A DNA stretch of 64,000 bases from Candidatus Kaiserbacteria bacterium. GTDB lineage: Bacteria; Patescibacteriota; Minisyncoccia; Phycocordibacterales; UBA918. Below the pieces are notes generated by a model. The model did not search any database and was not told where the DNA came from. It worked only from the letters and a program-made list of their open reading frames with translations. The DNA is taken from positions 512,317 through 576,316 of the forward strand of contig CP064968.1 of assembly GCA_016699245.1 (NCBI GenBank), written 5' to 3'. This document shows positions 9,332-31,320 of this stretch, piece after piece (positions within the stretch are counted from its first letter, which is position 1; each line of letters opens with the position of its first letter). The translations under genes were made by a program, and so were the position numbers.

Positions 9332-9407
9332 TGGTGCCTCCACCCGGAATCGAACCAGGATTTTTTCCTTAGGACGGAATTGTTCTGATCCATTGAACTA
9401 TGGAGGC
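9332..9407 (-). tRNA. tRNA-Arg (anticodon CCT), CCA encoded
   Basis: Minus-strand reading GCCTCCA-TA-GTTC-AATGGATCA-GAAC-A-ATTCC-GTCCTAA-GGAAA-AAAT-CCTGG-TTCGATT-CCGGG-TGGAGGC-A-CCA. Anticodon loop is gTCCTAa, and the T-loop is the canonical TTCGATT. Confidence 0.8.
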
Positions 9408-9490
9408 TTGTTTCCTAATCTATAGGAATTTGTACTGTAACATAAAAACCTCAGTGTCCGAAGGATACCGAGGTTTTTATAGTGGAATAC

Positions 9491-9727: not shown

Positions 9728-9773
9728 ATGAATAGTTTATATTACTAACTACGTACGAGCAGTATATACTAAA

Positions 9774-10175: not shown

Positions 10176-10398
10176 GTGGTATTATTGTACCATTCTCGCT
10201 TTAGATTTCCTCAAAAGTTCTTAAAATTTTGAGAACTTGGTGGAGATAGATTAATCGAATATGGTACTACCACTATGAGTTTCTTATTTCACAAAAAGAC
10301 AAAGACGGCTATTAAATGGGTTTGGTCTGTCATCGCGATTATTATTGCTTTAAGTATGATTTTTGCATATTCGGCCGGAAGTGGTTTTTAGTTTTAGA

Positions 10399-10437
10399 GA
10401 AAATCCCCTGCAGCCTTTGGCTGCAGGGGATTTTTTA
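10399..10437. terminator. Bidirectional rho-independent terminator at the 3' end of lepA
   Basis: aaaatcccctgcagcc-tttg-gctgcaggggatttttt: perfect 15-bp stem flanked by A/T runs. Confidence 0.7.
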
Positions 10438-12219: not shown

Positions 12220-12285
12220 AGAATCAATACTCTACCATAGCGCGCAAAAATAGGTACTCCCGTATACCATTTGCATTTTGGTATC

Positions 12286-12320
12286 AAAAAAATAGCAAGG
12301 CGTCGCCTTGCTATTTTTTT
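12286..12320. terminator. Rho-independent terminator downstream of the surface-protein cassette (copy 1 of a duplicated terminator)
   Basis: aaaaaaatagcaaggcg-tc-gccttgctattttttt. An almost identical 50-nt context recurs at 16546-16594. Confidence 0.7.
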
Positions 12321-12346
12321 ATGTATCTTCTGAGTAATAAGACTAA

Positions 12347-16455: not shown

Positions 16456-16560
16456 ATGCGTTAATTATATATACACCACCATTCTTTAGGAAGATGTGGG
16501 GGGGGTATAAGTGAGTTGAGCGTGTACTGTATAGATACAATACTTTTGCATTTCAATATC

Positions 16561-16594
16561 AAAAAAATAGCAAGGCGACGCCTTGCTATTTTTT
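16561..16594. terminator. Rho-independent terminator downstream of murJ (copy 2 of the duplicated terminator)
   Basis: aaaaaaatagcaaggcg-ac-gccttgctatttttt. Nearly identical to 12286-12320, including the upstream ttgcattt..atc context. Confidence 0.7.
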
Positions 16595-16599
16595 CTTTG

Positions 16600-18321
16600 C
16601 TATACCGCGAGCGTATCTTCGTCTTGAGGTACTGCCACATCACAAAGAGTACCTTTGTTCTGGGGTAGTGGTACACCACGACGTGAGCAGTGTTTATGGA
16701 GTGTTTTAGAAATCTCGATAAGTTCTTCGTTTTTAAACAGGTATTGGAGCACAACATATCCCACTCCCCCACCCACTGCCGCCAAAAAGCCTTGTGCGAA
16801 TACGGTGAAAAGTGTGTCCACGGTAAATGCGAGCACAAAATAATTTAAAAGTATGTATGCTACGTATCCTGCAAAAATAGCCGAAATAAAGGACTGTACA
16901 AATGGGACAACGAGTGTCTTGCCCTGAATATACAAATCCTTGCGCGCGAGAATGAGGAGTATCGCACTGTGCAAAATAAGTGCACATGAATACCCGAGTG
17001 GAAGTGCGAGAACCTCAATACCCGAAACACCCTCAAGACGCATCATTCGCTCCACGAGTGAATAAAAATCACCCTGTGCAAGCAGTACCGTATGAAATGC
17101 ATACGCCCCGAGTAGTGCGAATGCTGAAGAAAAAAGAGTCACTACAAAAGGAAGTCGCGTATTTTCTACCGCATAGAGTGCCCGCACGATGACCAAATGT
17201 ATTGCCTGTGCGGTAAGAGAAAGAATGAAAATGGCGAGGACCGCGGCCGTGAGACGGGTATCACTCCAATCAAATGCTCCTGAGCCGAGCACGACACGTA
17301 CCACCTGTGCACGAATCACGACGAGAAGTGCGATGACGGGCAAAGACCAAAAGAAAATATGCTTGAGCGCAGTAGTGATACTATATGCAAATTGTGCGTA
17401 CTGTTTTTCCGCATACAGCTGTGCAAGAAGTGGAAATGCAGCCACCGAGTAACTCACACCAATAACCGCAAGTGGCACCGACTGCAAATTGTATGCAAAC
17501 TGAAACACCGACACCGAACCCACCGCCATAAGACTTGCAACACTCACAAACCCAAGGAGGACTAACTGGTGGAATGAAAGAGTGAGTGCGCGGGTAAAGG
17601 ATGTCTTGCAGACCATCACGATATCCATATGTACAAAAGTCCACACAAAGCGTGGTGCAAGAGGGCTTCTAATCACGGAAGGTATCTGAATACACACGTG
17701 CCCCATAGCACCTAAAAGCACGCCGAGCACAAGCCCGTATACACCCATACTTGGATACAAGAACAAGAGTCCCGCGATAATACCGAGATTGTAGAGAAGC
17801 GGGCTTAGTGCATAGAGAATAAAACGATGTTCCATCTGCGTCACAATACTAAAAAGACTCGATATCCCAAGAAGAAGTGGTTGAACGAGAAGAATTCGTA
17901 TAAGCGCAACAAGTGTCTCACTTTCCCCTGCAAACCCCGGAAATAGGTACGTCACCATAAGTGGTGCACCTATCATTGCGACGAGTGCGACTGCTCCATA
18001 CAGTAAAATAAAAAGCGAGAAAAATTGCGAGAGTAAATTCTTTGCTGCAGAGGGTACCCCGGTTTCTGCTTTTCGTGCAAGAAATGGAATAAGTACGTAC
18101 ACCGAAAGCGTCGAAGCAAAAATCACGTAGAGTACATCGGGAATACGGAAAGCCGCGTAGTAGAGGTCAAGCTCGGTACTTGCTCCAAACTCATGTGCAA
18201 GGAGTCTGTCACGTACCAATGCAAGTAACTGAGAACCAAACGTAAAAACCGCAAGAACATACGCGGCTTGATGCAAGCCGCGTACCTCCTTATACACAAT
18301 TCTAAATACGTTTTGAACCAT
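16600..18321 (-). CDS. murJ: Lipid II flippase MurJ (MviN)
   Basis: MurJ N-terminal signature (AAYVLAVFTFGSQLLALVRDRLLAHEFGASTELDLYYAAFRIPDVLYVIF), ~14 TM segments, 573 aa. Confidence 0.8.
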   Translation of the reverse strand: MVQNVFRIVYKEVRGLHQAAYVLAVFTFGSQLLALVRDRLLAHEFGASTELDLYYAAFRIPDVLYVIFASTLSVYVLIPFLARKAETGVPSAAKNLLSQFFSLFILLYGAVALVAMIGAPLMVTYLFPGFAGESETLVALIRILLVQPLLLGISSLFSIVTQMEHRFILYALSPLLYNLGIIAGLLFLYPSMGVYGLVLGVLLGAMGHVCIQIPSVIRSPLAPRFVWTFVHMDIVMVCKTSFTRALTLSFHQLVLLGFVSVASLMAVGSVSVFQFAYNLQSVPLAVIGVSYSVAAFPLLAQLYAEKQYAQFAYSITTALKHIFFWSLPVIALLVVIRAQVVRVVLGSGAFDWSDTRLTAAVLAIFILSLTAQAIHLVIVRALYAVENTRLPFVVTLFSSAFALLGAYAFHTVLLAQGDFYSLVERMMRLEGVSGIEVLALPLGYSCALILHSAILLILARKDLYIQGKTLVVPFVQSFISAIFAGYVAYILLNYFVLAFTVDTLFTVFAQGFLAAVGGGVGYVVLQYLFKNEELIEISKTLHKHCSRRGVPLPQNKGTLCDVAVPQDEDTLAV

Positions 18322-20811
18322 TTACTGTACTGTTGTAGACGCTACATTTTCCACATTTGGTTGTGTATTGACCGGTTTTACCAAATCAGTTTCACTGGTC
18401 TGATTGGTACTCACGACGCCATTTTCATCGGTTACCGGTGTTGCCTCATTTACTATTTTTGTAGACTGATTGGCGCTTTCTCGGAGTCGTGCTAACGACC
18501 CTTCTGTTTGTATAGTTTGCAAAAGTATAGTAACTTCTTCATTTCCTGGATTGAGTCGCAACACTGCTTCGAACTGCTGTTTTGCCTCGCCACTACGTCC
18601 TTTTTGATCATAGGCAAGAGCGAGTAGATATCGTGCATTTGCAAAATTTTCATCGAGTGAAATAGCTTTTTCAAAAGATGCTATTGCTCCATCAATGTTA
18701 TCACGTGAACTTTCGAGTACACCAAGTTGGTAATACCGTGCAGGGTTATTCGGCTCGAGTGTAATTACTGACTGTGATGATTTGATTGCAGCCTCAACAT
18801 TTCCTGTAGCTATCTCTAACTGTGAAAGAAGGAAAAATGCTTCAGTATAATTTGGTTTTAAGTTAATCGCTTGCTGAATGTATTCACGAGCAATGTCAAC
18901 ATTTCCTGACCGCGCCTCCAAAAGAGCAGATTCGAGGTACGGGAGTGGGCTCTTTGGATTAAGTTCTCGGGATTTTGCAAGTGCATCAAGCGCACGCTGT
19001 TGTGCGCCCTCCACGGGTACCAATGCCAAAATACTATATATATTCGCAAGTACAGACCAGTTTGACGGTTCCTGACCATCAATGGATACCGCTTGATTCG
19101 CAGCATTAATGCCGAGAATACCTGCATTGTTGAATTGTTCAATTTGAACTTCTGTAGGTTCTTTAGTTGCCATGAGTGCATTCATACGCGCAATCTGAAA
19201 TTCAGCAATACGACGAGCAAACACATCGCTTGATGAGAGTTTGTATGCACTTTCGACACGATCTTCGAGTTCATCAATACTCTTCCCCTGCTGCATTGAA
19301 ATGACACTTTCCATAAAGGTATACACCGATGAGTAATGACGTCCTGTTACATACAAAACACTCACGGAGCCAATAATGACGGTAATCACCACAAGTGTGA
19401 GCACAAAGCCCGAGCGTCGATTTGCACCTACAAAGAATATTCGCGGTGAAATACCATCCAATACTGAAAATGCAGAAAGTGAGACGCCTGTGCAGAGCGC
19501 TCCCAAGAGGAGGATTACCGCGCCTGGTACATAGACTATGGACATTCCCCAAATATAGATTGCGCTTACAAAAGAAGATAGACCGATAAAGTACCACATG
19601 CGGTCACTATCCTCAGTAGCACCAAGAAGTTTTCGAATACCTGTAATAAGATATAGAACTATAAACAGCAACCAAGCGAGTCCTCCAAAAACACCTGTTG
19701 TCACAAAGAATGTTGTAATATAACCATTTCCTGCATTGAAATCAGTATTCCAAAACGGAGTCGAATTTATACTATTATCCTTGTACAAACGCCATGCATC
19801 AGTAAACTTATTGGCACCGATACCAAGAAATGCATTATCTTTGTATACCTGACGTGCTATATCTGCAGTCGCTTCAAGCGAAGGTCGCACCTCCACATAC
19901 GAAACACCCGTGAACTTTGAAATAGCGCCTCCAAGTGTTGCGCCACCGACTACAAAGAGTGCGGATACGGCAAATACAATGAGCGAAGTCGTGAGTGACG
20001 TGCTGTTGAAATTTGATATTGAAGGAGTGAACGAAAGTTGATTTCCACTGAATCTTTCCTTTCCGATTGAGTACACAACCATGACGAGACTGGTGAGGCC
20101 AAGAATAAGCCATACCATGAAAAAATTAATTACTCCAAGCATGAAGAGTGATATGAGTGTGACACTCGCAAAGAGAAGACGACCTATCTTTGTGAGTGCA
20201 ATTTGTTCAAGTGCTACGAGAGACAGAATAACCGTCAAACCGAGGAAGAGCGCAAGGTCATTCCAGCTTCCTACCGGTGTCGATGTGGTGCTTGTAAAGA
20301 TACTGAACGAAAGAAATTCTTGACCGAATTTGAGACGAAATAGATGGTATACGACTAAGATGGTTGTACTTAACGCAAGAAGCACATACATACGCATGAC
20401 TGGAGCTTTGCTTGATTTCAACAATAACCACACGGTTGGAATAAGTGCGAGTATAGCGACAAATGCTGTAGAGTGAATACTAAATAAATCACCTACCAAA
20501 GAATCTCTGAAATCCCCTGAAAGAAACGATGACAAAAATGTGATACCCACAATACCCCAAAGCGCAAGAAGTGGATATGACACACCAACTGAAAATACAC
20601 CCGAACGAAGTACCGAGAGACTATACAGTACAAGTGCAATGAGTAGCCCCCCAATCACTATAAATACTTTTGTGTACTCGAACGGCACAGCCGCGGAAGG
20701 AATAAAAAGGAGAGGTAATAGACCAAAGATTATGACAAGAATATTTTGTGCATATCCGCAAAGCGCACTCGCAATAGGATCATTTTGTGGTAGTTTTTCA
20801 TCAGGCAGCAT
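18322..20811 (-). CDS. O-antigen ligase (Wzy_C)-like polytopic membrane protein with a C-terminal TPR-repeat domain
   Basis: ~500-aa polytopic membrane region with a long external loop, followed by ~6 TPR-like repeats (ALDALAKSRELNPKSPLPYLESALLEARSGNVDIAREYIQQAINLKPNYTEAFFLL...AKQQFEAVLRLNPGN). Confidence 0.55.
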   Translation of the reverse strand: MLPDEKLPQNDPIASALCGYAQNILVIIFGLLPLLFIPSAAVPFEYTKVFIVIGGLLIALVLYSLSVLRSGVFSVGVSYPLLALWGIVGITFLSSFLSGDFRDSLVGDLFSIHSTAFVAILALIPTVWLLLKSSKAPVMRMYVLLALSTTILVVYHLFRLKFGQEFLSFSIFTSTTSTPVGSWNDLALFLGLTVILSLVALEQIALTKIGRLLFASVTLISLFMLGVINFFMVWLILGLTSLVMVVYSIGKERFSGNQLSFTPSISNFNSTSLTTSLIVFAVSALFVVGGATLGGAISKFTGVSYVEVRPSLEATADIARQVYKDNAFLGIGANKFTDAWRLYKDNSINSTPFWNTDFNAGNGYITTFFVTTGVFGGLAWLLFIVLYLITGIRKLLGATEDSDRMWYFIGLSSFVSAIYIWGMSIVYVPGAVILLLGALCTGVSLSAFSVLDGISPRIFFVGANRRSGFVLTLVVITVIIGSVSVLYVTGRHYSSVYTFMESVISMQQGKSIDELEDRVESAYKLSSSDVFARRIAEFQIARMNALMATKEPTEVQIEQFNNAGILGINAANQAVSIDGQEPSNWSVLANIYSILALVPVEGAQQRALDALAKSRELNPKSPLPYLESALLEARSGNVDIAREYIQQAINLKPNYTEAFFLLSQLEIATGNVEAAIKSSQSVITLEPNNPARYYQLGVLESSRDNIDGAIASFEKAISLDENFANARYLLALAYDQKGRSGEAKQQFEAVLRLNPGNEEVTILLQTIQTEGSLARLRESANQSTKIVNEATPVTDENGVVSTNQTSETDLVKPVNTQPNVENVASTTVQ

Positions 20812-20884
20812 AAGTAATAGTTGTAATTAATACGTATCTTTTATTAAACTTCTCCAAAGTATACTTAATATACTATCACACACA

Positions 20885-21250
20885 AAAGCGCCCACATAAT
20901 GGGCACTTGTGTGTACGTTTATAAGCCGAATTCTGTCTGGAAAACCAGTGTGATCATTTACCTAGGCGCATTGTTGCCAATGCGCTCATGCGGCACTCCC
21001 TGGTGAAATGTGCAGAGCACTCTAAGTAGCAAACTACTCTATTTCACTGGGCACGGCCTTGCACACAAGTACGTATTTAGCCGTTTCATCCGAACTAAAT
21101 CGGTTCGTCACTGTTCGCAACGCTATGGTTACCCACGACGGGCGTTACCCGCTACTCTTCCAGGCTTTATCCTGGTGTGTGTTCGGACTTTCCTCCCCTC
21201 GTGCTTTTGGCGAAGGGCGATCACAAACGCATACAAACTATACAACATTT
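20885..21250 (-). ncRNA. rnpB: RNase P RNA (bacterial type)
   Basis: Minus-strand reading contains GAGGAAAGTCCGAACACA (P4, consensus GAGGAAAGUCCGGGCUCC), GGTAACGCCCG (consensus GGUAACGCC), and the 3' ACAGAATTCGGCTTATAA (consensus ACAGAACCCGGCUUAU), then a terminal hairpin. Ends are approximate. Confidence 0.75.
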
Positions 21251-21253
21251 TCA

Positions 21254-21730
21254 CTAATACTCAAGAGGGATACGTACCTTCTGCCCGACATGGATACCTA
21301 TGAGCTCCGGGTACTGCGTTTCAGTTTCAAGTACGTATTTTGCTGGTCTATTTGGACGGAATACACGGGGATAGGTGTTGGGAGATACATTTTTTTCAAT
21401 ACCAATCACCGTTAGGTCTTCGTCAATCCACACAATATCAATAGAAAACTTCATATCCTTCATCCAAATACCAATATAGTCTTCTTCAGGAAAAATAAAG
21501 AACATACCCTTGTATCGATCATCGATTTTTTCTCGTCCAGAAAGTCCTTGCGCACGCTCAATTTCAGAGTCTACTATTTCCACACGTACGGGTAAATCTC
21601 CAAAATGTACCACTGGTGTTTCTGCAAAAAAGAATTCACGCATCGTTACAGTCTCGCCATCAAGATACAAGTACAACCCCCCGAGAGGTATGAGTATTAA
21701 AATAATTAAAACTTGGATTCTATTTCTCAT
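21254..21730 (-). CDS. DUF192 (COG1430)-like protein
   Basis: N-terminal TM, then the DUF192-like core (AQGLSGREKIDDRYKGMFFIFPEEDYIGIWMKDMKFSIDIVWIDEDLTVIGIEKNV). Confidence 0.6.
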   Translation of the reverse strand: MRNRIQVLIILILIPLGGLYLYLDGETVTMREFFFAETPVVHFGDLPVRVEIVDSEIERAQGLSGREKIDDRYKGMFFIFPEEDYIGIWMKDMKFSIDIVWIDEDLTVIGIEKNVSPNTYPRVFRPNRPAKYVLETETQYPELIGIHVGQKVRIPLEY

Positions 21731-21739
21731 ATTACATAA

Positions 21740-22147
21740 CTACCACGGCCAATACATAATGACTCCCACCCCTCCAAAAAACGTGATGACAATAAATACC
21801 CCGTGTACAGCCATATACCTCCATGAGCGAAATTCACGATGGGCTAATAGTATGAGTGATCCAATTAAAAGTAAGCAGATGAGCCCAGCACCTTGGAAAA
21901 AAGTCTGATTATCATCCATTATGTTCATCACCTGCACAGCGCATGCAAAGAAGAATGCATATACCACGACAGAGTAAGCAGTGGCACGAACCATGTGGAG
22001 CGTAGAAATATCCTCGGTGTACTCTGTGTGACCGATAGACTTTTTCCATACAGAGCCAAACAACAGTGGCGAGTACCAGATACTTTCCACTGCAACAGCA
22101 AGAATTGCTGCGACAAGTACTGCAATCTCATTGATAGATGAAAACAT
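21740..22147 (-). CDS. Small 4-TM membrane protein (DUF1761-like)
   Basis: 135 aa, four hydrophobic helices, WYSPLLFGSVWKKSIG motif reminiscent of DUF1761. Confidence 0.4.
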   Translation of the reverse strand: MFSSINEIAVLVAAILAVAVESIWYSPLLFGSVWKKSIGHTEYTEDISTLHMVRATAYSVVVYAFFFACAVQVMNIMDDNQTFFQGAGLICLLLIGSLILLAHREFRSWRYMAVHGVFIVITFFGGVGVIMYWPW

Positions 22148-22161
22148 ACACCTTTAGTATA

Positions 22162-22860
22162 TCACTTCTGTACTTTAGGTCGGCGTTTATACCACCACAC
22201 TCCTCCTATACCTCCCATAATGATACCGAGGGGGATGTATACGTATGGTGACAAAACCATAAAAAAGGCGCTTCGCTCATTGAAACGTTGTACATCAATA
22301 AGTCTTCCCAAAAGGCTGAAGTAACCCAAAGTCATGTCATCACGCTTCCCCACCATAAGGACATATTTTTCTGCATTATCGGGCGTGTGCACCTCAATGC
22401 GATACACTCCGGGTTCCAACTCTTTTTCAAAAGTCGCTCCCTCGCGGTATGAGTTTCCCGTGAGGGTGTCATGCACGGTTTCCCATGCGGCGTCCGCAGC
22501 GTGCATGCGGGTTATTTCAGAGACACCACGTTTTTCCTCTTTAATAATAATCCCCGAAACGGTATTGGTATTAGACGGCAAGTCTGGTGTACGAATGTTG
22601 GCGTAGAGAGTAAAGGGTTCAGAAGCATGGATTTCATACGTCTGTGGAAAACTATCGAGTGTGCCGAAAAATCCTTGTGCCAAAGTGGGGTCGGCAATCT
22701 GTGTAATGTCGTTCAATGACTCTTGCTCTACGAGAACAGGCACATACGCGAGTGCCTGCGGAGCAAAAAACATGTACAACACTAAAAACAAACCTAATCT
22801 CATTGTGAATATCATACCGTATTTACTCTGGTGTGGTATAGGCATTATTAAACATCTCAA
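22162..22860 (-). CDS. Hypothetical secreted protein with a C-terminal TM anchor
   Basis: Probable signal peptide (MRLGLFLVLYMFFAPQALA), ~190-aa ectodomain, C-terminal TM (IPLGIIMGGIGGVWWYKRRPK). True start probably the internal Met near 22804. Confidence 0.45.
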   Translation of the reverse strand: MRCLIMPIPHQSKYGMIFTMRLGLFLVLYMFFAPQALAYVPVLVEQESLNDITQIADPTLAQGFFGTLDSFPQTYEIHASEPFTLYANIRTPDLPSNTNTVSGIIIKEEKRGVSEITRMHAADAAWETVHDTLTGNSYREGATFEKELEPGVYRIEVHTPDNAEKYVLMVGKRDDMTLGYFSLLGRLIDVQRFNERSAFFMVLSPYVYIPLGIIMGGIGGVWWYKRRPKVQK

Positions 22861-23389
22861 AATAATCTGAGAACGTTATAAACAGTGGCTCATTTTCCAA
22901 ATCCTGCACACAGGTATCAAAGGCATATTGTTTGGCGTAATAGGTAATATTGTAGCGATAGCCCGTGCCATCATATTCCACAGGACACGCACCCGTGAAC
23001 GTAGTTTCTAAAAGGGATTCGAGATTAGTACTTTTGAGTGTTTTAAAAAGTGCAGTCTTTTCTCCCGTACTCAGTGTGTCGGCAAAGCGTGTCTCTCCGT
23101 CCTCACGGCTACGCACAATGTATTCATACGTACCATCATCAGAAATGCGGTACGACGCACACCCATCCCCGCGCGCGCAACCACCATACCGATATGCGGT
23201 CACTGAAAGAGCCGATGTTTCCTCAAGCACCACTTCCTCACCATCCCCTCCATTCCCATTATTCCCCGTGTTATTAAAAAGAAAAAGTATTGCCCCTGTC
23301 ACAAACCCAAAAACAAAGGTAGACAAGAGAATCACATACACATGCTTGGTCATAATCCTACTACGATACCCCCTTTCGATTTTTCCCAC
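22823..23389 (-). CDS. Hypothetical membrane-anchored protein
   Basis: N-terminal TM (HVYVILLSTFVFGFVTGAILFLF) followed by a Gly/Asn linker and a Cys-containing ectodomain. No recognisable family. Confidence 0.4.
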   Translation of the reverse strand: MGKIERGYRSRIMTKHVYVILLSTFVFGFVTGAILFLFNNTGNNGNGGDGEEVVLEETSALSVTAYRYGGCARGDGCASYRISDDGTYEYIVRSREDGETRFADTLSTGEKTALFKTLKSTNLESLLETTFTGACPVEYDGTGYRYNITYYAKQYAFDTCVQDLENEPLFITFSDYFEMFNNAYTTPE

Positions 23390-23428
23390 AAATGAGTTAC
23401 ACTATATGCCCCAGAGAAAAATACATAC

Positions 23429-23513
23429 GGAGGCGTCGCATAGTGGTCTAGTGCGCTCGCTTGGAAAGCGAGTAAGGTGAAAGCCTTCGAGGGTTCAAAT
23501 CCCTCCGCCTCCG
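23429..23513 (+). tRNA. tRNA-Ser (anticodon GGA), class II with long variable arm
   Basis: GGAGGCG-TC-GCA-TAGTGGTCTAG-TGC-G-CTCGC-TTGGAAA-GCGAG-[TAAGGTGAAAGCCTTC long variable arm]-GAGGG-TTCAAAT-CCCTC-CGCCTCC-G. Anticodon loop is ttGGAaa. Confidence 0.85.
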
Positions 23514-23822
23514 CTTGAGCTTCGCGAAAGCGGAGGCGGAGCACATGCTGGGAGCATGTGCGAAGGGATTTGAAGCCATTCAGAGATAATTTTGGAGCCG
23601 CAGGCGAACAAAAATATCCAGAATGGGTACTGAACATGTAATGTTCAAATCCCTCCGCCTCCGCAACGAACGAAGTGAGTGGAGGAGGTGGACAGTCTGG
23701 GAGACTGTCCAAGGATTTGAAGAGGTTGTCGATAGTTTCTGAAAGAAAATATCATACAACCTGAACAGAATCTGTGCCGCGTTCCAGTGAACGAAAAGAT
23801 TCAAATCCTCTCGCCTCCGCAC
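23514..23822 (+). repeat. Two tandem structured units downstream of tRNA-Ser, each re-using the tRNA 3' end and its reverse complement
   Basis: GTTCAAATCCCTCCGCCTCCGC (tRNA T-arm plus acceptor 3' strand) at 23492-23513 is repeated at 23643-23664 and, degenerate, at 23798-23820. Each is followed by its complement (gcggaggcggag / ggaggaggtgg), a GGGA-tetraloop hairpin (cacatgct-ggga-gcatgtg; ggacagtct-ggga-gactgtcc), and the T-loop complement (gggatttgaag). Confidence 0.5.
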
Positions 23823-23827
23823 ACAGC

Positions 23828-25273
23828 CTACTCGTCTACGGTGGGTATTTCTTCAAGTCCTGTATCTTCGATAATTTCCTCGGGGACTTCAGGTACAATC
23901 TGGGCAATCGGATCTTCAACATCCTCTGCAACTTCTTCTTCTAATGGCACCTCTTGAACTACTTCATCGGTAGTCACAGGAGGTATGGGCAACATCATGA
24001 GCGGTTCCACGGAGGGCAGCGCTCGAGGCAACGCTATAGGAGTAGGTGCGGTAAAGGTGAGCGATATCTTTTCACTATCATCATACCCCACACCAGTTGG
24101 ACCGGTGGCGTCCCACGCGGTGTATTCAATATCAATCACACATACCTCCCCCTCCCCAAAAGGACCGTAATTGACAGGTAGTGAAAGCGACAGGGTCCAC
24201 GGTTCATCAAATACGACATCTGAGGCACTGAGATTGACGAGTGACCCTTGATACATAAGCGGTGCACCAGCATCAACGAGTATCGACTGACAAAATAACG
24301 TATTATCACCTACAACATTCGTGTGCACACGGTACTTGATATCAGTACTTCCCTCCGCGGGTGTGACCACCGCGATAAGCGCGCCGTCTGCATCGTCAAG
24401 CTCACTTCCAATAAAGCTATATGCAGTGTCATTAACCGACAGTGTGAAATCAAGCGCTTGTGCCTGAAGTGTATTCTGCACAGAAGATTCTGAGTCGCCA
24501 AAATATGAAACCGTTGAACCTACAAACCCGAGACCGACAATACAAACGCTCGCAACCACAGAAAACGCCCCAATCGCAACGTCACCAAAAGACACAGAAT
24601 GACGCTTGGTATTTCGCACAACACTCATGGGGAGATGTCTTGCCTTGGTAACTGGCTGATACGACACTATTGGTCTTCCAATTTCTATCATACGTACTCT
24701 TTGTCGTGTGTCTGGCGGTAAATCCACACGCACGTCATGCACAACGACGCTTCCCGTATCATCTCCTTTGTCTTTTTTATTTTTTCGTATTTCTCGCCAA
24801 ATTTTCTCAATTTCACCAAAAATAATCATGAGTGCAGGTAGCACAATCAAGAAACCAAAGCCCATCGGTTGCCGTGCGAAGTCAAGAATGAATCCCACAT
24901 AGGGAACTGCAACAACCACCTCTCCCAGTATGGCGCTTAAAGGAATTTGTTCTGTATCCGCCTCTTCATTAGCATCGCCTTTGGTTGTAAACCAGGTTGT
25001 CCCATTACGTTCTTCACTACTCACAATTCTGTGTGTTGTTGGAATTTCTGCTGATGGACTTTTAAAGGTAATAACATCGTTAGTTTCATACTTTCCCGTT
25101 GGACCTATAACAACGACTGAGCCCGTAAGGATTGCAGGTTCCATTGACCCTGACTCAACAATCTTGATTTCAATTTTGGTATCGAGTGGTGAAAGTGGCG
25201 CCAAAAAGAGTCCCGCAACACCAATGAGCAGTACCGTGAAGAAACTATAGAAAATGGTGATGAAAATTTTCAT
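23828..25273 (-). CDS. sipW: SipW-type signal peptidase I (S26B) fused in one ORF to a TasA/camelysin-like domain that carries its own SipW-cognate signal
   Basis: N-terminal ~200 aa: TM, catalytic ESGSMEP, TTKGDANEEAD, second TM, as in SipW. From the internal Met at 24626-24628: n-region MSVVRNTKRHS, an h-region, then STVSYFGDSESSVQNTLQAQALDFTLS, which matches the SipW-cognate signal motif (GTxAxFSDxExSxxNxFxAGxLDL). Acidic C-terminal tail. Confidence 0.65.
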   Translation of the reverse strand: MKIFITIFYSFFTVLLIGVAGLFLAPLSPLDTKIEIKIVESGSMEPAILTGSVVVIGPTGKYETNDVITFKSPSAEIPTTHRIVSSEERNGTTWFTTKGDANEEADTEQIPLSAILGEVVVAVPYVGFILDFARQPMGFGFLIVLPALMIIFGEIEKIWREIRKNKKDKGDDTGSVVVHDVRVDLPPDTRQRVRMIEIGRPIVSYQPVTKARHLPMSVVRNTKRHSVSFGDVAIGAFSVVASVCIVGLGFVGSTVSYFGDSESSVQNTLQAQALDFTLSVNDTAYSFIGSELDDADGALIAVVTPAEGSTDIKYRVHTNVVGDNTLFCQSILVDAGAPLMYQGSLVNLSASDVVFDEPWTLSLSLPVNYGPFGEGEVCVIDIEYTAWDATGPTGVGYDDSEKISLTFTAPTPIALPRALPSVEPLMMLPIPPVTTDEVVQEVPLEEEVAEDVEDPIAQIVPEVPEEIIEDTGLEEIPTVDE

Positions 25274-25274
25274 A

Positions 25275-26501
25275 TTATCGTCGCGAAGGTCGGATCACAG
25301 GTGATGAGACGCCACTTGTTACGGGACTTACCACACTCGGTGTTTGTAGTACCGTAGGTTGCACTCCGGGTGTCGGACTTGCGGGTGTTTTGGTTTTCTT
25401 TGCGGGACGGTACTGGTTATCCACCTGGCAATAGAGGGTGCCGTCGTCGATATTCTTATTATCAATGACGATAGTTGTAGAGAACGTACTTCCCTTCTTG
25501 CATTCTCCATACCATCCTGGTCGCCAGTCACCCGCCACAAAGCCCACAGGCCCAACCTCAGTTATTGAATATGTCCCCAGAGGCAACTGTATTGTCCCAT
25601 TTGCTGAATCTACCGTGTAGGGAGTGAGTGTCACTGTTTGATTGATGCCTGCACCAACAACTTGGAATGTGAACTGCTGTGGCAAATACCCTTCTGGTAC
25701 GGGGCCACTGAATTTCTTTTCGAGGTTAAGCGTTACCGTAGGACCCACAGGTGGTGGAGGGACTGAACCATCGCATTGGTACTTTGGATAATCATCCGCA
25801 GTCACGCTACGAAGCGCAAGATCAACGGAAAAAGAATCCGTTTGTGCCCAATTGCCGAGGGCAGAGCCATCACACGTGACCTCGGCGGTTGCGGTATTAA
25901 CCGTTTGGTCACCCGCACACCACTCAATAGCAACATACTTGGTCACGTTCGCAGGAAAATAATTACCCGTAGTCGCGTCAGCGAGAATATATTTCTTGAG
26001 CACAGCAAAACCTGATTGCTCTGTAGTGGTGCCAAAGAGTGTCTTCTCCCCCACTTCATACGTATTATCACCATCGTCAAACCAACCGAAAAACTCTATT
26101 CCTTTCGAGAGTTCCCCTCCGAGTACGCCATCCACATCGAGGAGTGACTCTGGTTCATTATTTCCATTATCGTGGTCAACCAAGTTCGTAAAATCCATAC
26201 AGCCCCATGCATTTTTATCGACATGAAAACTGATGGTATTGATACCGCTATCCCCTGGCTTTATATCAGTGAAGTTAAAGAATTTATCAACACTGGGTAC
26301 GAGATTTTTTAATGCCCAGGTTTGTGATGGTTGCACGACACCATTATAGATTGCATAACTGTCTATCTTTAAATTGAGACCACCCGTAGCAAAGGTTGTA
26401 CCAATAAATCCCTTACTAAACATCATCACAAAAGCAAGGAATACCACTACCCCCACAATGAGGGCAATGCGTATTCCTGTTTTTGTATATGTGCGATTCA
26501 T
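25275..26501 (-). CDS. TasA/camelysin-like (SipW-cognate signal) secreted protein, paralog 1
   Basis: N-terminal TM then FSKGFIGTTFATGGLNLKIDS (variant SipW-cognate motif). Shares KFFNFTDIKPGDSGINTISFHVD and WCAGDQT...TCDGSALGN blocks with the other paralogs. Divergent Pro-rich C-terminus. Confidence 0.6.
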   Translation of the reverse strand: MNRTYTKTGIRIALIVGVVVFLAFVMMFSKGFIGTTFATGGLNLKIDSYAIYNGVVQPSQTWALKNLVPSVDKFFNFTDIKPGDSGINTISFHVDKNAWGCMDFTNLVDHDNGNNEPESLLDVDGVLGGELSKGIEFFGWFDDGDNTYEVGEKTLFGTTTEQSGFAVLKKYILADATTGNYFPANVTKYVAIEWCAGDQTVNTATAEVTCDGSALGNWAQTDSFSVDLALRSVTADDYPKYQCDGSVPPPPVGPTVTLNLEKKFSGPVPEGYLPQQFTFQVVGAGINQTVTLTPYTVDSANGTIQLPLGTYSITEVGPVGFVAGDWRPGWYGECKKGSTFSTTIVIDNKNIDDGTLYCQVDNQYRPAKKTKTPASPTPGVQPTVLQTPSVVSPVTSGVSSPVIRPSRR

Positions 26502-26602
26502 TTTTTTAGGTACTTATCGCTTCTTCTTTGGGCTATGGTGCTATGGGTTGCGTTCTATGGTTGAGTACTGAGGATGCGTCGAGGCATACGTATTCACCAA
26601 TA

Positions 26603-28017
26603 TTACTGACAGATAGGGCTGTAGAGTTTGATGTCGTCTATGAAACTGCCTTGTGAATTTGCGGTGCCAAGGTCGGTGAACTGAAGTCGAGTCACATTCG
26701 AAGTTGCAACAACATTCACCGTGATAACCTGCCATTCGATACCATCATTATTGTCTGCTACATTGCCGGTGTCGTGCACGACTGCTCCTCCCCACTTCAC
26801 CTCAACACGGTTTTCTGCCGATCCTGTGTTCGGACGCGCTGCAAAGGCAAACTTGATGCGGTACGGCCTTCCTATGACCGTTGGAATGTCTTGGTACATC
26901 GTGATGGATGCTGGCTCACCGGTACCACTGTCGCTTGGTCCTCCCCAGTCGCTGTCGAGCTCAGAATACTGGTCACCTTCATACGCACTGCCGAGTACGT
27001 TTTCATGTAACTCAAGTTTTGCAAGTGCGGGACGATTCTGGTTTCCAAATGTCGGGAGAACATCTCCACGCCATTCGATAGTCCAGCCATCGACAGGAGT
27101 CTGAAACACGTCCCATTTCTTTCCATTCGTCACCTCAGGAACTTCGAAACTGTAGTTCTCAAGAATATTTTCTGGTTGCTCTACAATGGTGCAGTTTTTG
27201 GTACACTCAAAGTTTGCATTATGCCTTGCCTGCACTGCTTCAAATACAATGTCGGCAGTGAGTGAGTCGGTCTGACTTTCATTACCGAGGGCAGTACCAT
27301 CGCAAGTATATCCACCGTCTTCGGGCTCGCCGATTGCCGATGTTCCACCGTTATTGTCTGCGGGAGAACTGTAATTACCTGTGGTAGTGGCGCAGGCACA
27401 ATCGTTCCAAAGCACCATGCTTTACCGATGTGTTTTGTTGTATTACCCGGAATAGGTCCTGCCTGATTTGTCCAGATGTTTTTCACGCTGTCGGCAAAGG
27501 TGAGTGCGTATGAATTGCCAACACCAAGTTGGCCAAAGTTGCCCGTATTGATAACGCTCTCACCCACCTCAAGCACGTTATCGCCATCATCAGCCCACCA
27601 GATGAAGTTGACGAGGCCGGCAAGTTCACCTTCGGTTGCACCAGTCGTTAGGTCGACGAGTGCCTCTGGCTCTGTCTGAGCATTCTCATTGTTTGAGGTG
27701 AGTGTGACATTCGCGCAGAGATATGCGTCATTCGTATCAACGTGAAGTGAGATAGTATCCTCTCCGTAGTCATCAGGCTTGAGGTCAAAAAAATTGAAAA
27801 ACTTCTCAATGGTGAGGTTGGTTGCATCCCATGAGGTAGTGCTTGTCGCAACGCCGTTGTAGTAACTTTCGTTGTCTACTTTGAGATCAATTGCCCCTGC
27901 GGTAAACACGTTTGCTACTGAGGTTTCGGTATCACTAAAGAACGCACTCGTTGCTCCGAACACCAGTCCGCCCGTTACCACCCCTATGAGTGCAAGACTG
28001 AGAATAATACGCTGCAT
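26603..28017 (-). pseudogene. TasA/camelysin-like paralog 2, disrupted by a frameshift near 27400-27420
   Basis: ORF 27181-28017 has the canonical N-terminus (GGLVFGATSAFFSDTETSVANVFTAGAIDLKVD...KFFNFFDLKPDD...KHIGKAWC) then runs into out-of-frame sequence. ORF 26603-27418 continues the family-conserved part (TCDGTALGNESQTDSLTADIVFEAVQARHNANFECT) in another frame. Confidence 0.55.
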
Positions 28018-28045
28018 AGTTTGATATATAAATAATTTATTAAAA

Positions 28046-28100
28046 TATGCTGGTTCCCGTCAGCCCGCTAAATCCCAGCCAAGCTGAGATTTAGTACGGC
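28046..28100. promoter_or_regulatory. Conserved structured intergenic motif between TasA-like paralogs (copy 1)
   Basis: tcagcccgctaaatcccagccaagctgagatttagtacggctag. It is ~90% identical to 29403-29450 and contains nested inverted repeats (cagc-cgaa-gctg; gctaaa/tttag). It lies ~60 nt upstream of the next paralog's start codon and downstream of the previous stop. Confidence 0.4.
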
Positions 28101-28109
28101 TAGTGAGGA

Positions 28110-29357
28110 CTAGTTTGGATTAGATACAACCAAGTTTGTAATAACGCACGTTGGATTAACACCTGATACAACATTCATGTTTGCAGTACCTATGTCATCA
28201 ATCTCTGCACAGCTACCACTGAACGACGCATTGTATTGAATTCCAACAGGATCATTTGAGTACACTTCAGAGACGACGTATGCTCCTGGAGTCAGGTTAG
28301 GAAATGCTACCTGATCAACCAAGATATGATCCCCGCCCGGACCAACCAAATGAAGTACGAAGTCGTTAACATCTACTCCTACAACTGAAGCCTGTGTAAA
28401 TTGAACAACTTTATCAAGAGTTACTGTTCCTGTCTCAACAACTACACGTGGTGTACATGTGAAGTTTGGATTGTTTCGAGCCTGTTCTACACGGAACGCA
28501 ATACTTGCTTCCATAGAGTCGGTCTGCACAATATTGCCCAAATTTGAACCATCGCAGGTAATTGTATTTCCCACGATAGCCTGTGTTCCTGCGCACCATG
28601 CTAGACCAATGTAGTTGGTCTGATTTGGTGCCATTGGTGTACTGTTGTTGAGTCCTGGCATAGCAAGCGGATAACTCTTTCCTCCAAGCACATCACTCGC
28701 TGGACCTGAGTCGTTTGAGAACAGAAGTGGCTCAGCTATTTCTCCTTGCCAAATATTATCTCCTTCACCAGCATCATCATTCAGTTCATTTTCATCTGAG
28801 TTCTGCCATCCAAGGGTAGCGCCCTGATCTAACCAAGCTGCGAACTTAATATTCTGCGCGAGTTCACCATCAAACATATCTGCATCTGGCTCACTTGCTT
28901 GAGTATCTAATTCAAGAACTTCTGCATCTTCTGGCTCATTCACTGTCATGTCATCATTCTTGGTGATATTTACATCAACACAAGCCCAAGCGGGGTTTGA
29001 ATCAATGTGAAGTGAAATAGTGTTTTCACCTTCATCACCAGGTTTTACATCTCGGAAATTAAAGAAAGTCTGTGCACCTAAGTCAGTTGCTTCCCAGGTA
29101 CCCGTACAAGGGAGACCAACTGGATACTCTGTACCACCCTGCCAAGTGTAATCAGTTAAATCGTTAGTAGTTAGAAGGTTTAACTGGCAAATACTACCAT
29201 TATAATGTGCTTCACTATCTACCGTTAGGTCAATTGCTCCGGCAGTAAAGACATTTCCTGTTGAGGTTTCTGTGTCAGAGAAGAATGCTCCTGTTCCTCC
29301 GACGATGAGGGCGCCCGCAAACACGAGCATCCCAACACTTGTAATAATTTTTTTCAT
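28110..29357 (-). CDS. TasA/camelysin-like (SipW-cognate signal) secreted protein, paralog 3
   Basis: MKKIITSVGMLVFAGALIVGGTGAFFSDTETSTGNVFTAGAIDLTVDSE. Conserved FFNFRDVKPGDEGENTISLHID, GLAWCAG...TCDGSNLGNIVQTDS and FRVEQARNNPNFTC blocks. Variable C-terminal beta domain. Confidence 0.7.
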   Translation of the reverse strand: MKKIITSVGMLVFAGALIVGGTGAFFSDTETSTGNVFTAGAIDLTVDSEAHYNGSICQLNLLTTNDLTDYTWQGGTEYPVGLPCTGTWEATDLGAQTFFNFRDVKPGDEGENTISLHIDSNPAWACVDVNITKNDDMTVNEPEDAEVLELDTQASEPDADMFDGELAQNIKFAAWLDQGATLGWQNSDENELNDDAGEGDNIWQGEIAEPLLFSNDSGPASDVLGGKSYPLAMPGLNNSTPMAPNQTNYIGLAWCAGTQAIVGNTITCDGSNLGNIVQTDSMEASIAFRVEQARNNPNFTCTPRVVVETGTVTLDKVVQFTQASVVGVDVNDFVLHLVGPGGDHILVDQVAFPNLTPGAYVVSEVYSNDPVGIQYNASFSGSCAEIDDIGTANMNVVSGVNPTCVITNLVVSNPN

Positions 29358-29402
29358 ACAATTATTAATTTATTTGTAATTAATACTTTTAATTTCCTGG
29401 TT

Positions 29403-29450
29403 CTTACCAGCCCGCTAAACCCCAGCCGAAGCTGAGATTTAGAACGGCTA
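29403..29450. promoter_or_regulatory. Conserved structured intergenic motif between TasA-like paralogs (copy 2)
   Basis: ccagcccgctaaaccccagccgaagctgagatttagaacggctag, near-identical to 28046-28100. Confidence 0.4.
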
Positions 29451-29457
29451 GAAATGA

Positions 29458-30963
29458 CTAGATAGCAGGCGCACCTAGGTATAGACGAGCATTATCGAAT
29501 GGCAAATCTGTAAACGGATTGTTTATAAACCATCCATATCGATTACCTCCAACTTCTGCTGGGATAGTGTCAGATGGATCACTTCGAGTCCATGAACCAA
29601 CCACTACGCCAAGACTATTGAGTACTTTCATATCTACAACCAGTACACCAGCTACGTCATGGAAGTAAGCTTGAAGTGTGTACCAACCGGTGGTGTTGAT
29701 AGCCACAGTTCCAACTCCATGTGGGTCACCAGGTGCGTTATTACTTGCATTTGCTGCCCATACACCTACTGCATTAGTACCAAGATGGAAAATAAAGTCA
29801 CGTTGATGATTTCCATCTGATCCATTACTTGCAGATGAGAAATCGAAACGCTTATCTATACCATCAGCATCTGCCATATCAAGATAGACATCTACTTCAG
29901 TTGTATAGCCACCAGCTGGAAATACTGATGAATATCCTCCCCATCGAGTAAAGATATCTCCATTAGCAAGACCATGTTTATTTCCATCAGAAGATGTAAC
30001 ACCACCTGTACCTGAATTTACGATACTGAATGTACCATCATTACTAAACCAGTACGGGTCACCTTGCTGTTCAAAACTTTCTGAAAAGACCAAATCTAAT
30101 GCTGGAGGAATATCTCCGCACGTAAAGTTAGGATTATTTCGTGCTTGTTCAACGCGGAACGCAATATTTGCAACCATAGAGTCAGTTTGCGCAATGTTGC
30201 CCATCGCACCACCGTTACAAGCAATTGTTCCGGCAACTGGCGTGGTGAGATCACCAGCACACCAAGCAAGCCCGACATAACTAGTACTTCCACCTACCAG
30301 TGCTCCGAGAATCGGAGAAGCAATTGTGTAGCTCTCACCATCGAGCACATCGCTCGCTGGACCACTACCATTTGAGAACAATGGTTGCTCATTTGCTTGC
30401 CAGATGTTATCTCCTTCACCTGGATCAGTACCTTGGAATCCTGGTGTTGCTCCGTAGTCTGCCCAAGCAAAAAATTCGATATTTTGAGCGAGCTCTCCAT
30501 CAAAGAGACTGCCGGTATTAACCGCGTCCCCTGCACCAAGTTCTGGTTCTACTGTACTCACATCATCATTAGCAACAAGTGACACATCGACACAAGCATA
30601 CGCATCATTGTTGTCTACATGAAGAGAGATAGTATTTTCTCCTTCGTCGCCTGGCTTGATGTCGGTAAAGTTAAAGAAAGTTTGCGCTCCCAAATTGGCT
30701 GGAAGCCAAGTTCCGGTACATGGTGAATTAAGGACTGGGTACTGTGGATTATCTTCAGTCTCTCCATCATCTAGCACCCATACTCCGTTTGTACAAACAG
30801 CATTGTTGTAGTGTTGTTCACTATCAACCTTTAAATCGATTGCTCCAGCGGTAAACAAGTTACCTGTTGAGGTTTCTGTATCACTAAAGAATGCGCCTGT
30901 GCCGCCAGCGACAAGTGCGCCGACGAAGACAATCATTCCCAAACTCATAATAATTTTTTTCAT
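29458..30963 (-). CDS. TasA/camelysin-like (SipW-cognate signal) secreted protein, paralog 4, with a long divergent C-terminal domain
   Basis: Likely start MKKIIMSLGMIVFVGALVAGGTGAFFSDTETSTGNLFTAGAIDLKVDSE at 30963. Conserved FFNFTDIKPGDEGENTISLHVD, GLAWCAG...ACNGGAMGNIAQTDS and FRVEQARNNPNFTC, then ~230 aa of unique C-terminus. Confidence 0.7.
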   Translation of the reverse strand: MKKIIMSLGMIVFVGALVAGGTGAFFSDTETSTGNLFTAGAIDLKVDSEQHYNNAVCTNGVWVLDDGETEDNPQYPVLNSPCTGTWLPANLGAQTFFNFTDIKPGDEGENTISLHVDNNDAYACVDVSLVANDDVSTVEPELGAGDAVNTGSLFDGELAQNIEFFAWADYGATPGFQGTDPGEGDNIWQANEQPLFSNGSGPASDVLDGESYTIASPILGALVGGSTSYVGLAWCAGDLTTPVAGTIACNGGAMGNIAQTDSMVANIAFRVEQARNNPNFTCGDIPPALDLVFSESFEQQGDPYWFSNDGTFSIVNSGTGGVTSSDGNKHGLANGDIFTRWGGYSSVFPAGGYTTEVDVYLDMADADGIDKRFDFSSASNGSDGNHQRDFIFHLGTNAVGVWAANASNNAPGDPHGVGTVAINTTGWYTLQAYFHDVAGVLVVDMKVLNSLGVVVGSWTRSDPSDTIPAEVGGNRYGWFINNPFTDLPFDNARLYLGAPAI

Positions 30964-31320
30964 GTGTATATAAATGCTATGTATAATGAATACCAATAAA
31001 CACGTTGGGGCTTCCTAAGCGCGTTCCCTACCACACGAGTATTCCCATAAAACGTCTGATAATAATATCGTATGCTGTCAAATCGAGGTATTTGAGGAAA
31101 AAAAGAAAAAATAGTACTCATTTTTGAGCAAATATGTGCATAAGTCGTAACAGCTTTGTTGAAGATACTGATTATTGTAAAATTTTGTATAGTTGATAAC
31201 GTGTGCTTAACGTGTGCTTAACAGATGTATATTCTGTTCATAGTGCTGTAGACAACACTTTTTGTAGGTAATAGAACACACAAAAAAAGAAGTTCAATAC
31301 GTGCGTATGACACTTCTTAA

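Follow-up and report, generated by a model that had tools for sequence, protein, structure and literature searches.

We describe an array of two tandem noncoding units directly downstream of a tRNA-Ser(GGA) gene in a 64,000-nt stretch of a Candidatus Kaiserbacteria genome (GenBank accession number CP064968.1, positions 512,317 to 576,316 of the forward strand; referred to here as the window, whose positions are used throughout). We put at about even the chance that these units belong to a family of miniature, hairpin-rich, noncoding insertion modules of Saccharibacteria, in the candidate phyla radiation (CPR), that enter loop-coding positions of stable-RNA genes, most often the tRNA T-loop. 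At tRNA genes, a conserved core, made up of a long hairpin, CTGAAC, and a small hairpin with a GTA loop, has the tRNA 3′ end copied on both sides, inverted to its left and in direct orientation to its right. The two copies stop at one T-loop position (T54-C56), and these flanks are able to pair, closing a T-shaped fold around the core. The tRNA upstream is intact, by which reasoning the gene stays functional. The family appears to be undescribed; a full-text literature search of limited extent found no description of such elements. Saccharibacteria and other CPR bacteria have genomes of about 1 Mb with single-copy tRNA genes, and their mobile DNA is little known; Saccharibacteria take up DNA by natural transformation.

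The tRNA-Ser(GGA) array and its counterparts in relatives

The tRNA-Ser(GGA) gene (23429 to 23514) was predicted with ARAGORN and matches the Rfam tRNA model with 59.3 bits; CCA is not encoded. The gene and its array, which together occupy 23429 to 23822, are on the plus strand. The original prediction, made from the sequence alone, was that the tRNA is followed by two tandem units that reuse its 3′ end and the reverse complement of that end, and ARAGORN, Rfam, and repeat analysis bear this out. The repeat block c0 (GTTCAAATCCCTCCGCCTCCGC, 23493 to 23514) is formed by the last 22 nt of the tRNA, from G53 of the T-arm to discriminator+1. Block c1 (23643 to 23664) is a direct repeat with 22/22 identity to it, and block c2 (ATTCAAATCCTCTCGCCTCCGC, 23799 to 23820) matches the tRNA at 18 of 22 positions. 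The spacing is 150 nt from c0 to c1 and 156 nt from c1 to c2, so the three predicted occurrences at about 150 bp are present, the second exact and the third only as a variant. The three blocks are the sole matches to the 22-mer in the 64 kb at ≤3 mismatches, against none expected from shuffles.

Each unit of about 150 nt follows one grammar: a 3′-end block, a short loop, an inverted acceptor copy, a GGGA hairpin, an inverted T-loop copy, a long AT-rich hairpin, CTGAAC, a small GTA-loop hairpin, and the next 3′-end block. The approximately 130 nt between the repeats contains no open reading frame (ORF). In unit 1, a turn loop (TTGAGCTTCGCGAAA, 23515 to 23529) separates c0 from the inverted copy of the acceptor and T-stem 3′ strand (GCGGAGGCGGAG, 23530 to 23541; inverted-repeat analysis), which is 100% complementary to 23503 to 23514 and to 23653 to 23664. 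The GAG…GCGAA motif of the turn loop recurs at the tips of other module hairpins; the corresponding loop in the relative L001 is TTGAGCACCGCGAAA. The inverted copy is interrupted by a small hairpin found by folding, P3 (CACATGCT-GGGA-GCATGTG, 23542 to 23560), whose loop is kept and whose stem sequence is changed in relatives. An inverted T-loop copy follows (AGGGATTTGAA, 23564 to 23574; inverted repeats), and then the long AT-rich hairpin, here termed A-type (CCATTC…GATAATTTTG-GAGCCGCAGGCGAA-CAAAAATATC…GAATGG, 23576 to 23626; folding). Its outer stem covaries among relatives (CCCTTTAG/CTAAAGGG, ACCTTG/CAAGGT, and GCCGGTG/CACATCGGC). The unit closes with the CTGAAC motif and a GTA-triloop hairpin (TGAACAT-GTA-ATGTTCA, 23630 to 23647) of the kind found family-wide, the 3′ arm of which overlaps the start of c1.

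The left half of unit 2 (23665 to 23722) begins with the loop AACGAACGAAGTGAG; the same loop and hairpin are present in the relatives L122, L123, and L124. It contains a degenerate inverted acceptor copy (GTGGAGGAGGTG, 23679 to 23690), a P3 hairpin (GGACAGTCT-GGGA-GACTGTCC, 23689 to 23711), and an inverted T-loop copy (GGATTTGAAG, 23713 to 23722). The hairpin of the right half, termed B-type, is a widely conserved module, the core (GGTTGT-C-GATAGTTTC-TGAAA-GAAAATATC-AT-ACAACC, followed by TGAAC; 23724 to 23766), and gives a profile match at 23700 to 23775 with an E value of 2.4e-20. The GTA hairpin of unit 2 (AGAATCTGT…GATTC, 23767 to 23801) is disrupted, with an extra small hairpin (CGTTC-CAGT-GAACG, 23780 to 23793) within it; relatives have different nested inserts in this place, following GTAA. 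The array ends at c2, after which no inverted copy or hairpin set is found; each occurrence had been predicted to be trailed by its complement, a GGGA hairpin, and a T-loop complement, which holds for the first two copies and fails for the third. The interiors of the two units thus differ in type, and the units are about 74% identical over the first ~80 nt only.

Each unit folds as a closed multibranch structure of much higher stability than shuffled sequences (RNA z score, −6.8), and DNA folding of the units gives z scores of −7.3 to −10.0 against shuffles on either strand. These values, with the three matches against none expected, agree with the original prediction that the pattern exceeds chance. 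No terminator lies between the tRNA and the array in the window. A terminator scan detected a weak terminator-like hairpin with a T-rich tail directly 3′ of the array (23826 to 23856, plus strand), overlapping the stop of a convergent 481-amino-acid (aa) ORF (23828 to 25273, minus strand).

Contigs of relatives were drawn from NCBI, JGI, ENA, and Logan assemblies through homologues of the 188-aa ORF beside tRNA-Ser (51 to 90% identity). L001, a metagenome-assembled genome labelled Candidatus Saccharibacteria, was found through MurJ (85% identity) and was the sole genome-collection relative so found; it displays the architecture at both tRNA-Ser and tRNA-Phe. Units follow tRNA-Ser(GGA) in all relatives whose contigs extend beyond the tRNA (8/8), and their number and type vary. 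The window has two units (A-type, then B-type), L001 has one, L123 has one plus a nested module and ends with a clear terminator, and L124 has two plus a partial third. L122 has at least four, a lower bound set by a run of N (scaffold gap or masking) at 2714 to 2812 inside the array. The orthologous unit 1 is 83 to 86% identical between the window and L001, and the flanking coding DNA is about 75% identical. In L130 the flanking DNA is identical to that of the window, yet L130 contains a module insert of approximately 265 bp, with tRNA-Ser 5′-end copies at its borders, that is missing from the window. Extra modules are nested after GTAA in L123, L124, L204, and L128. A further module (GCAAAGCTTTCT…GCACTCG…) was observed in L123 (about 2707 to 2630) and L124 (about 858 to 782), on the minus strand in each, and also in L128 and L204. 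It is repeatedly inserted right after the GTAA (or GTG) of a small hairpin or of GGTTGTAA, a position that appears to be a separate hot spot for insertion.

Several short-read contigs break inside the array, the adjacent tRNA, or the upstream module repeats of the tRNA, as repeats would make likely. Since NCBI, JGI, ENA, and Logan assemblies independently show the architecture, it is not an artifact of any one assembly, and the assembly-collapse explanation raised with the original prediction is discarded. Two alleles of the tRNA end were distinguished: the tRNA of the window ends in …CCCTCCGCCTCCGC and the distal copy c2 in …CCTCTCGCCTCCGC. From its second base, c2 (21 nt, 23800 to 23820) is 100% identical to the working tRNA-Ser end of L001, L123, and L124; conversely, the distal copy of L001 resembles the tRNA end of the window. 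In the T-stem and variable arm, the tRNA-Ser bodies differ in matching, compensatory ways. Because the alleles are swapped and the bodies differ to match, whole tRNA-plus-unit segments may have been exchanged between lineages by homologous recombination, with the resident distal copy left in place. Synteny with L001 reaches the last tRNA-end copy, where the array ends, and breaks off exactly there.

A sister locus in the window, the tRNA-Phe gene (8738 to 8811) with its downstream array (8231 to 8811 in all, minus strand), has the architecture seen at tRNA-Ser in Phe-specific sequence, as predicted. It comprises, on the minus strand, a perfect palindrome with two 29-nt arms and a 4-nt loop that includes the terminator (8747 to 8686), a small hairpin (8684 to 8663), an inverted T-loop copy (8662 to 8649), degenerate B-type pieces (8516 to 8456 and 8395 to 8367), and 3′-end copies at about 8553 to 8540 and 8248 to 8231. 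The 5′ end of tRNA-Phe and 5 nt of its leader are also copied (CATTCGCTGAGGTAAG, 2 mismatches) at 8880 to 8895 (minus strand), 79 nt upstream, and L001 has two leader repeats of this kind at its tRNA-Phe. With a 5′-end copy upstream and 3′-end copies downstream, tRNA-Phe is partially duplicated on both sides.

The conserved core and its targets

The core of unit 2 and its GTA hairpin provide a search handle, GGTTGTCGA…TCATACAACCTGAAC-N7-GTA. The exact core motif GTTGTCGA-N15-45-CATACAACCTGAAC was found at at least 120 metagenome loci in one scan, for which we estimate a chance expectation of a few matches only. Family statistics rest on the 125 core copies from the metagenome loci listed. Some loci also encode homologues of window proteins (29 to 77% identity, most 40 to 77%) in a shared gene order, so the loci concerned are relatives. 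The B-type hairpin also occurs in the L001 Phe array and upstream of tRNA-Ser in several relatives, and a profile search detected three B-type copies in the window.

The core is under structural constraint. GTA lies exactly 7 nt past CTGAAC in 104/104 unique copies, at the tip of a covarying stem of 5 to 6 bp. In two gap-free alignments, of 20 (A1) and 15 (A2) sequences, 95.7% and 92.4% of cells are paired, with 55 and 28 double-change cells, respectively; in both, none of 500 shuffles was as high, and slid partners were only 34 to 48% (A1) and 38 to 51% (A2) paired. The stems of 89 core hairpins contain 627 Watson-Crick pairs, 5 G-T pairs, and 1 A-C pair, and the single-stranded linkers RAG, TGAAC, and GTA are strongly conserved. 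For a strand-asymmetry test of RNA-level selection, comparing G-T with A-C, these mismatches are too few (5 versus 1).

About half of the core copies (63/125) lie within 400 nt of a tRNA gene, the strand being shared in 49 cases and opposite in 14. For 36 of these 63, the tRNA is upstream on the same strand, most of them about 56 to 110 nt away. The linked tRNAs represent at least 13 amino-acid types; together with the eight relatives at tRNA-Ser, this upholds the predicted linkage of the repeats to tRNA genes and their covariation with the adjacent tRNA. Among 30 unique cases with a tRNA 35 to 105 nt upstream, the 3′ end of that same tRNA restarts 12 to 17 nt after CTGAAC in 28 (12 to 14 nt in 26). 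The restart point is 18 to 24 nt (mostly 20 to 22) before the tRNA 3′ end, in or just before the T-loop, and the exact run of restarted sequence has a median of 16 nt and a maximum of 27 nt. On the other side, the T-loop complement directly adjoins the RAG-GGTTGT start of the core. One core subfamily, with apical CGACC…GGAAG, lies beside Lys, Val, Leu, Cys, Gly, Arg, and Ser tRNAs; its presence at seven types indicates that the core moves and the flanks follow the target. The inverted flanks are target-derived and different for each tRNA, and the length of the duplication varies from about 6 to 62 nt. At the tRNA-Leu of L151, the direct repeat spans CCA and a whole terminator copy. Direct and inverted tRNA-end copies decay independently, without compensating changes.

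In most simple cases the tRNA is followed by an intrinsic terminator, then by the core between the inverted copy and the direct copy, and finally by a second terminator that differs from the first. In most of them no promoter follows the first terminator. As regards the tRNA-trailer processing signals also suggested in the original prediction, the presence of a terminator between tRNA and module argues against an obligatory role in tRNA maturation. Bystander tRNAs in the fetched loci have a 3′-end copy within 450 nt downstream in 8 of 38 cases. The comparison of loci proposed with the original prediction showed the pattern to recur in relatives and metagenomes.

Modules also occur away from tRNA genes. 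Copies with a GTGAGAAG-hairpin-CTTCGCAAGAG leader follow rplL, rplK, and an EF-G-like gene, in each case after the stop codon and before the terminator, and leader-type copies also lie in the 23S-5S spacer and beside 5S rRNA genes. The window contains one copy of the leader type away from any tRNA (43759 to 43912, minus strand; profile match E value, 2e-15). Its GTGAGAAAG-hairpin overlaps the stop codon of a DUF2207 gene, and its insert is followed by CGCGCAAGAG, the B hairpin, CTGAAC-AG, and a GTA hairpin (TCTCT-GTA-AGAGA). Directly downstream in the minus-strand reading is a poly-C, low-complexity run (…ttttttttccccccctcccccccccccccccaagaagggggaaaccccaccccacccc…, 43640 to 43740) that looks like a sequencing or assembly artifact rather than biology. 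The hairpin near 59.8 kb predicted to resemble P3 is present (GACAGTC-TGGA-GACTGTC, about 59787 to 59812) and proved a loose look-alike, with one G fewer than the GGGA version and no other module feature.

In L154 (about 800 to 1300), a second 5S copy, broken at several places by module hairpins, adjoins an intact 5S rRNA gene, the same pattern of a broken copy beside an intact gene as at tRNAs. Partial tRNA copies lie upstream of several tRNAs (Thr, Val, Asn, and Ser), with the module at the D-loop or D-arm, and in tRNA-Gln cases the module is at the T-loop in sense context beside intact tRNAs. A module copy in the 23S-5S spacer of L166 (about 2750 to 3160) is accompanied by a GC-rich, apparently structured stretch of about 150 nt.

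Proposed insertion modules weighed against other explanations

If the units are insertion modules, entry at the T-loop would give the tRNA a fresh 3′ end and displace the older end downstream, and the array would be built by repeated events at the tRNA-proximal site. Unit 1 would then be younger than unit 2, as its perfect flanks suggest; those of unit 2 are degenerate, and its 18/22 end copy is of the older allele. Homologous recombination between strains may later have reshuffled units and tRNA alleles. More speculatively, the closed T-shaped fold, as single-stranded DNA, could mimic the tRNA 3′-end duplex for a recombinase encoded elsewhere. We infer that an intact gene copy always survives entry. 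A selfish module rather than a tuned RNA is suggested by presence or absence among close relatives, variable unit number and type, nested insertions, and broken targets beside intact genes, and also by the independent decay of the end copies, the same core at many tRNA types, the intervening terminators, and the Watson-Crick stems with GNA-type triloops. A bolder proposal, which we think unlikely, is a programmable targeting system in which the work is done by the core and its antisense and sense tRNA-end copies. In the form of folded single-stranded DNA or of a guide-like RNA, these would show both strands of a 20- to 22-nt target to a recombinase encoded elsewhere. Elements of about 150 nt would then home to the T-loop of any tRNA gene and repair the gene entered. 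Site-specific insertion guided in this way by structure or by nucleic acid would be a new class, and one widespread in CPR bacteria.

Several observations weigh against insertion modules. No recombinase, transposase, or reverse transcriptase gene recurs within 2.5 kb of the 125 copies, the moving agent is wholly inferred, and the model offers no route by which the inverted copy of a new target would be acquired. No recent burst shows among the core copies of one 1.03-Mb contig, which are not near-identical to one another; D-loop junctions are imprecise; and in the Phe array preservation is better in the most distal 3′-end copy than in the middle one, so that the order of ages holds only loosely. 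The core often lies upstream of terminators within transcription units. Its preference for the strand of its neighbours (49:14 for tRNAs and about 2:1 for ORFs) and the presence of at least one unit at tRNA-Ser(GGA) in each checkable relative would fit a host function equally well.

Such a function is the main rival, a serious one that we hold as a minority possibility: structured modules of tRNA trailers, 3′ untranslated regions, and rRNA spacers that act in processing, stabilization, or small-RNA release, with the tRNA-end copies forming a processing stem or a tRNA-like end. The conserved linkers and covarying stems, the co-orientation of the core with the upstream gene, and the copies that follow the stop codons of rplL, rplK, and the EF-G-like gene and precede the terminators, or lie in the 23S-5S spacer, are all in its favor, as are the lack of a terminator between tRNA-Ser and the array in the window, the terminator-like hairpin after it, and the clear terminator of the L123 array. 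The presence of a unit at tRNA-Ser(GGA) in all checkable relatives and the higher identity of unit 1 than of flanking coding DNA between the window and L001 point the same way. A trailer RNA is harder to reconcile with a good intrinsic terminator before the module and no promoter after it in most simple tRNA cases, with stems that have hardly any G-U pairs, and with tRNA-end copies and complements that decay uncompensated. The number and type of units change freely within a single locus, neither the nested insertions nor the broken copies of tRNAs and 5S genes fit well, and no Rfam family matches.

The duplication has the form left by T-loop-targeting integrases, an identity block from the T-loop to the gene end, and the integrase attachment sites suggested in the original prediction are right in this respect only, the units not being classical sites of that kind. 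Prophages or islands that repeatedly integrated in the T-loop and were then deleted, leaving attL/attR remnants, would also explain why the distal copy is an allele that is a working tRNA end in relatives and why synteny breaks at the array end. This origin is nonetheless improbable: no integrase gene or remnant was found at more than 40 tRNA loci examined, the DNA between repeats is a conserved, ORF-free hairpin module of about 130 nt rather than a random remnant, and the module is also found at non-tRNA sites. The exact Ser 22-mer, the B-core, and the P3-plus-T-loop motifs are absent from 2.9 million viral contigs, and the array had no match in phage or plasmid collections. Plain local tandem duplication through slippage or unequal crossing-over, with no mobile element, accords with head-to-tail units of about 150 nt with a common 22-nt block, with the L151 repeat that runs through CCA into a whole terminator copy, and with the short-read contigs that break at arrays. 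It is largely contradicted by the recurrence of one core at tRNAs that cover at least 13 amino-acid types and have end sequences of their own, and we rate it as very improbable; the two window units differ inside, unequal crossing-over does not yield inverted copies, and the Rfam rtT model has no match. Integrase scars and unequal crossing-over account for the 3′-end repeats and not for the conserved core, the inverted copies, or the distribution across tRNAs.

Pfam scans of 50 window ORFs detected no integrase, transposase, reverse transcriptase, or Nop-domain gene, and neighborhood clustering for a partner protein returned housekeeping genes only. With Rfam 15, no family was found on the modules, in the window at gathering score and at E values up to 10 or in 20 metagenome loci at E values up to 0.05; RF00391 (rtT) had no match in 8000 to 24000 at E values up to 10. 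Known ribozymes and other RNA families were set aside on this basis.

Other identities were also rejected. The units are not tRNA-like or split or permuted tRNA genes; the T-stem 5′ strand is absent before the 3′-end copies, and the units give no tRNA match with ARAGORN or Rfam, even at E values up to 10. A tRNA intron was discarded after 111,366 in silico splice variants around 119 copies restored no tRNA, the lone match being an artifact at L247. The complement follows the genomic trailer (…GCTT/AAGC…) and not CCA, which excludes a primer-binding site for a tRNA-primed reverse transcriptase. A K-turn or box C/D reading of GA…GAA and CUGA fails on bulge geometry (hand analysis). A loose motif, TTGGAG-N-GCGAACAAAA, gave at least 120 matches in viral contigs, all due to chance on inspection.

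Window context and comparison with known systems

The window is an ordinary chromosomal stretch and encodes LepA, FtsB, MurJ, TsaD, a class-I aminoacyl-tRNA synthetase, GroEL, RNase J, and RNase P RNA. The RNase P RNA (bacterial class A; 20906 to 21235, minus strand) is a divergent version, scoring 116 bits against a gathering score of 100, and lies 2.2 kb from tRNA-Ser. Two large ORFs at 12240 to 16644 (875 aa, with a weak fibronectin-III match, and 494 aa, with no domain) are missing from the otherwise collinear L001 locus; this region is an indel or island between relatives. The genes at 23828 to 30996 have no counterpart at that position in L001. Two domain-free ORFs (481 and 408 aa) come first and four more (271, 278, 415, and 512 aa) after them; in three of these four, the N terminus is camelysin (Peptidase_M73)-like. 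Just upstream of the GroEL start codon (49395 to 49430) is a hairpin with a GAGCGTAAGCGAA loop, the loop motif of the tRNA-linked modules, and further upstream (about 49530 to 49860) is an unannotated coding-like stretch, possibly groES. An intergenic stretch of about 75 nt is common to the window (42108 to 42180) and L001 (18170 to 18258), with 77.5% identity; it contains …CAAAAGCCCTCAATGAGTCTTGCGAA… followed by a hairpin and may be another small structured element.

If the modules are selfish, the presence of such tiny elements in about a fifth to a third of sampled tRNA genes without inactivation would represent a new use of essential genes, and if a dedicated enzyme recognizes the T-shaped fold, they would be a candidate programmable insertion tool. 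If they are functional RNAs, they would be among the most widespread undescribed RNA motifs of the lineage, tied to stable-RNA and ribosomal-protein operons. The search handle given above can be used under either reading. The modules also probably account for the breaks that CPR contigs show at tRNA loci.

Elements with tRNA-targeting tyrosine integrases use attachment sites with a T-loop crossover, and their direct repeat runs from the tRNA T-loop to the 3′ end. The units share with them this direct repeat, the intact tRNA, the older end displaced downstream, and tandem buildup at one tRNA. Unlike integrase elements, they enclose only about 130 nt between the repeats, with no ORF and no integrase near, each has an inverted copy of the attachment block, and the interior is a conserved hairpin module also found away from tRNAs. 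The 178-bp repeats of Escherichia coli tyrT contain the tRNA 3′ end and are explained by slippage or unequal crossing-over. Like these repeats (rtT, RF00391), the units are tandem, lie downstream of a tRNA, and each include a tRNA 3′-terminal segment; unlike them, they have no match to rtT in sequence or structure and are not confined to one locus of one species, and tyrT has no inverted copy, core, or spread across tRNAs.

Folded single-strand sites are known from the CTXphi attP(+) forked hairpin used by XerCD and from integron attC. By analogy only, two inverted target-like copies about 75 to 110 nt apart would likewise fold into a duplex look-alike of the chromosomal site, and the order of site, cargo, inverted site, spacer, and site, the proximal growth of the array, and an enzyme encoded elsewhere would also correspond. 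The start of the repeat block, GTTCRAA, is close to the attC core GTTRRRY, and the unit cores (…YTYGAAC/GTTCRAA) are one position off the attC consensus (RYYYAAC/GTTRRRY); the resemblance is topological only. In contrast to these systems, no IntI gene was found in the window, the target is a tRNA gene and not dif or attI, the spacer is a conserved two-hairpin structure, and there is essentially no cargo. The topology of the T-shaped fold can also be likened, as an analogy, to parvoviral terminal hairpins.

TIGR-Tas systems have 36-nt tigRNAs with two 9-nt spacers (8 to 12 nt by definition) against adjacent half-sites, in arrays beside a tas (Nop-domain) gene (PMC12045711). Like these, the units are tandem and noncoding, are common in CPR bacteria, and have two segments addressing both target strands. 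Unlike these, they are about 150 nt long, use the same 22 nt in both orientations, and have no Nop-domain gene in the window; unit size and the absent tas gene exclude membership. REP/BIME, BOX, Correia-type miniature inverted-repeat transposable elements, and mitochondrial double-hairpin elements resemble the modules in being small, modular, noncoding, hairpin forming, and dispersed, often at transcribed intergenic sites near terminators, with variable module number and nesting. We know of no RAYT or transposase that partners with the modules described here. Unlike REP/BIME and the miniature elements, they are flanked by direct and inverted copies of the target rather than by fixed terminal repeats and have a strong preference for tRNA and 5S loops.

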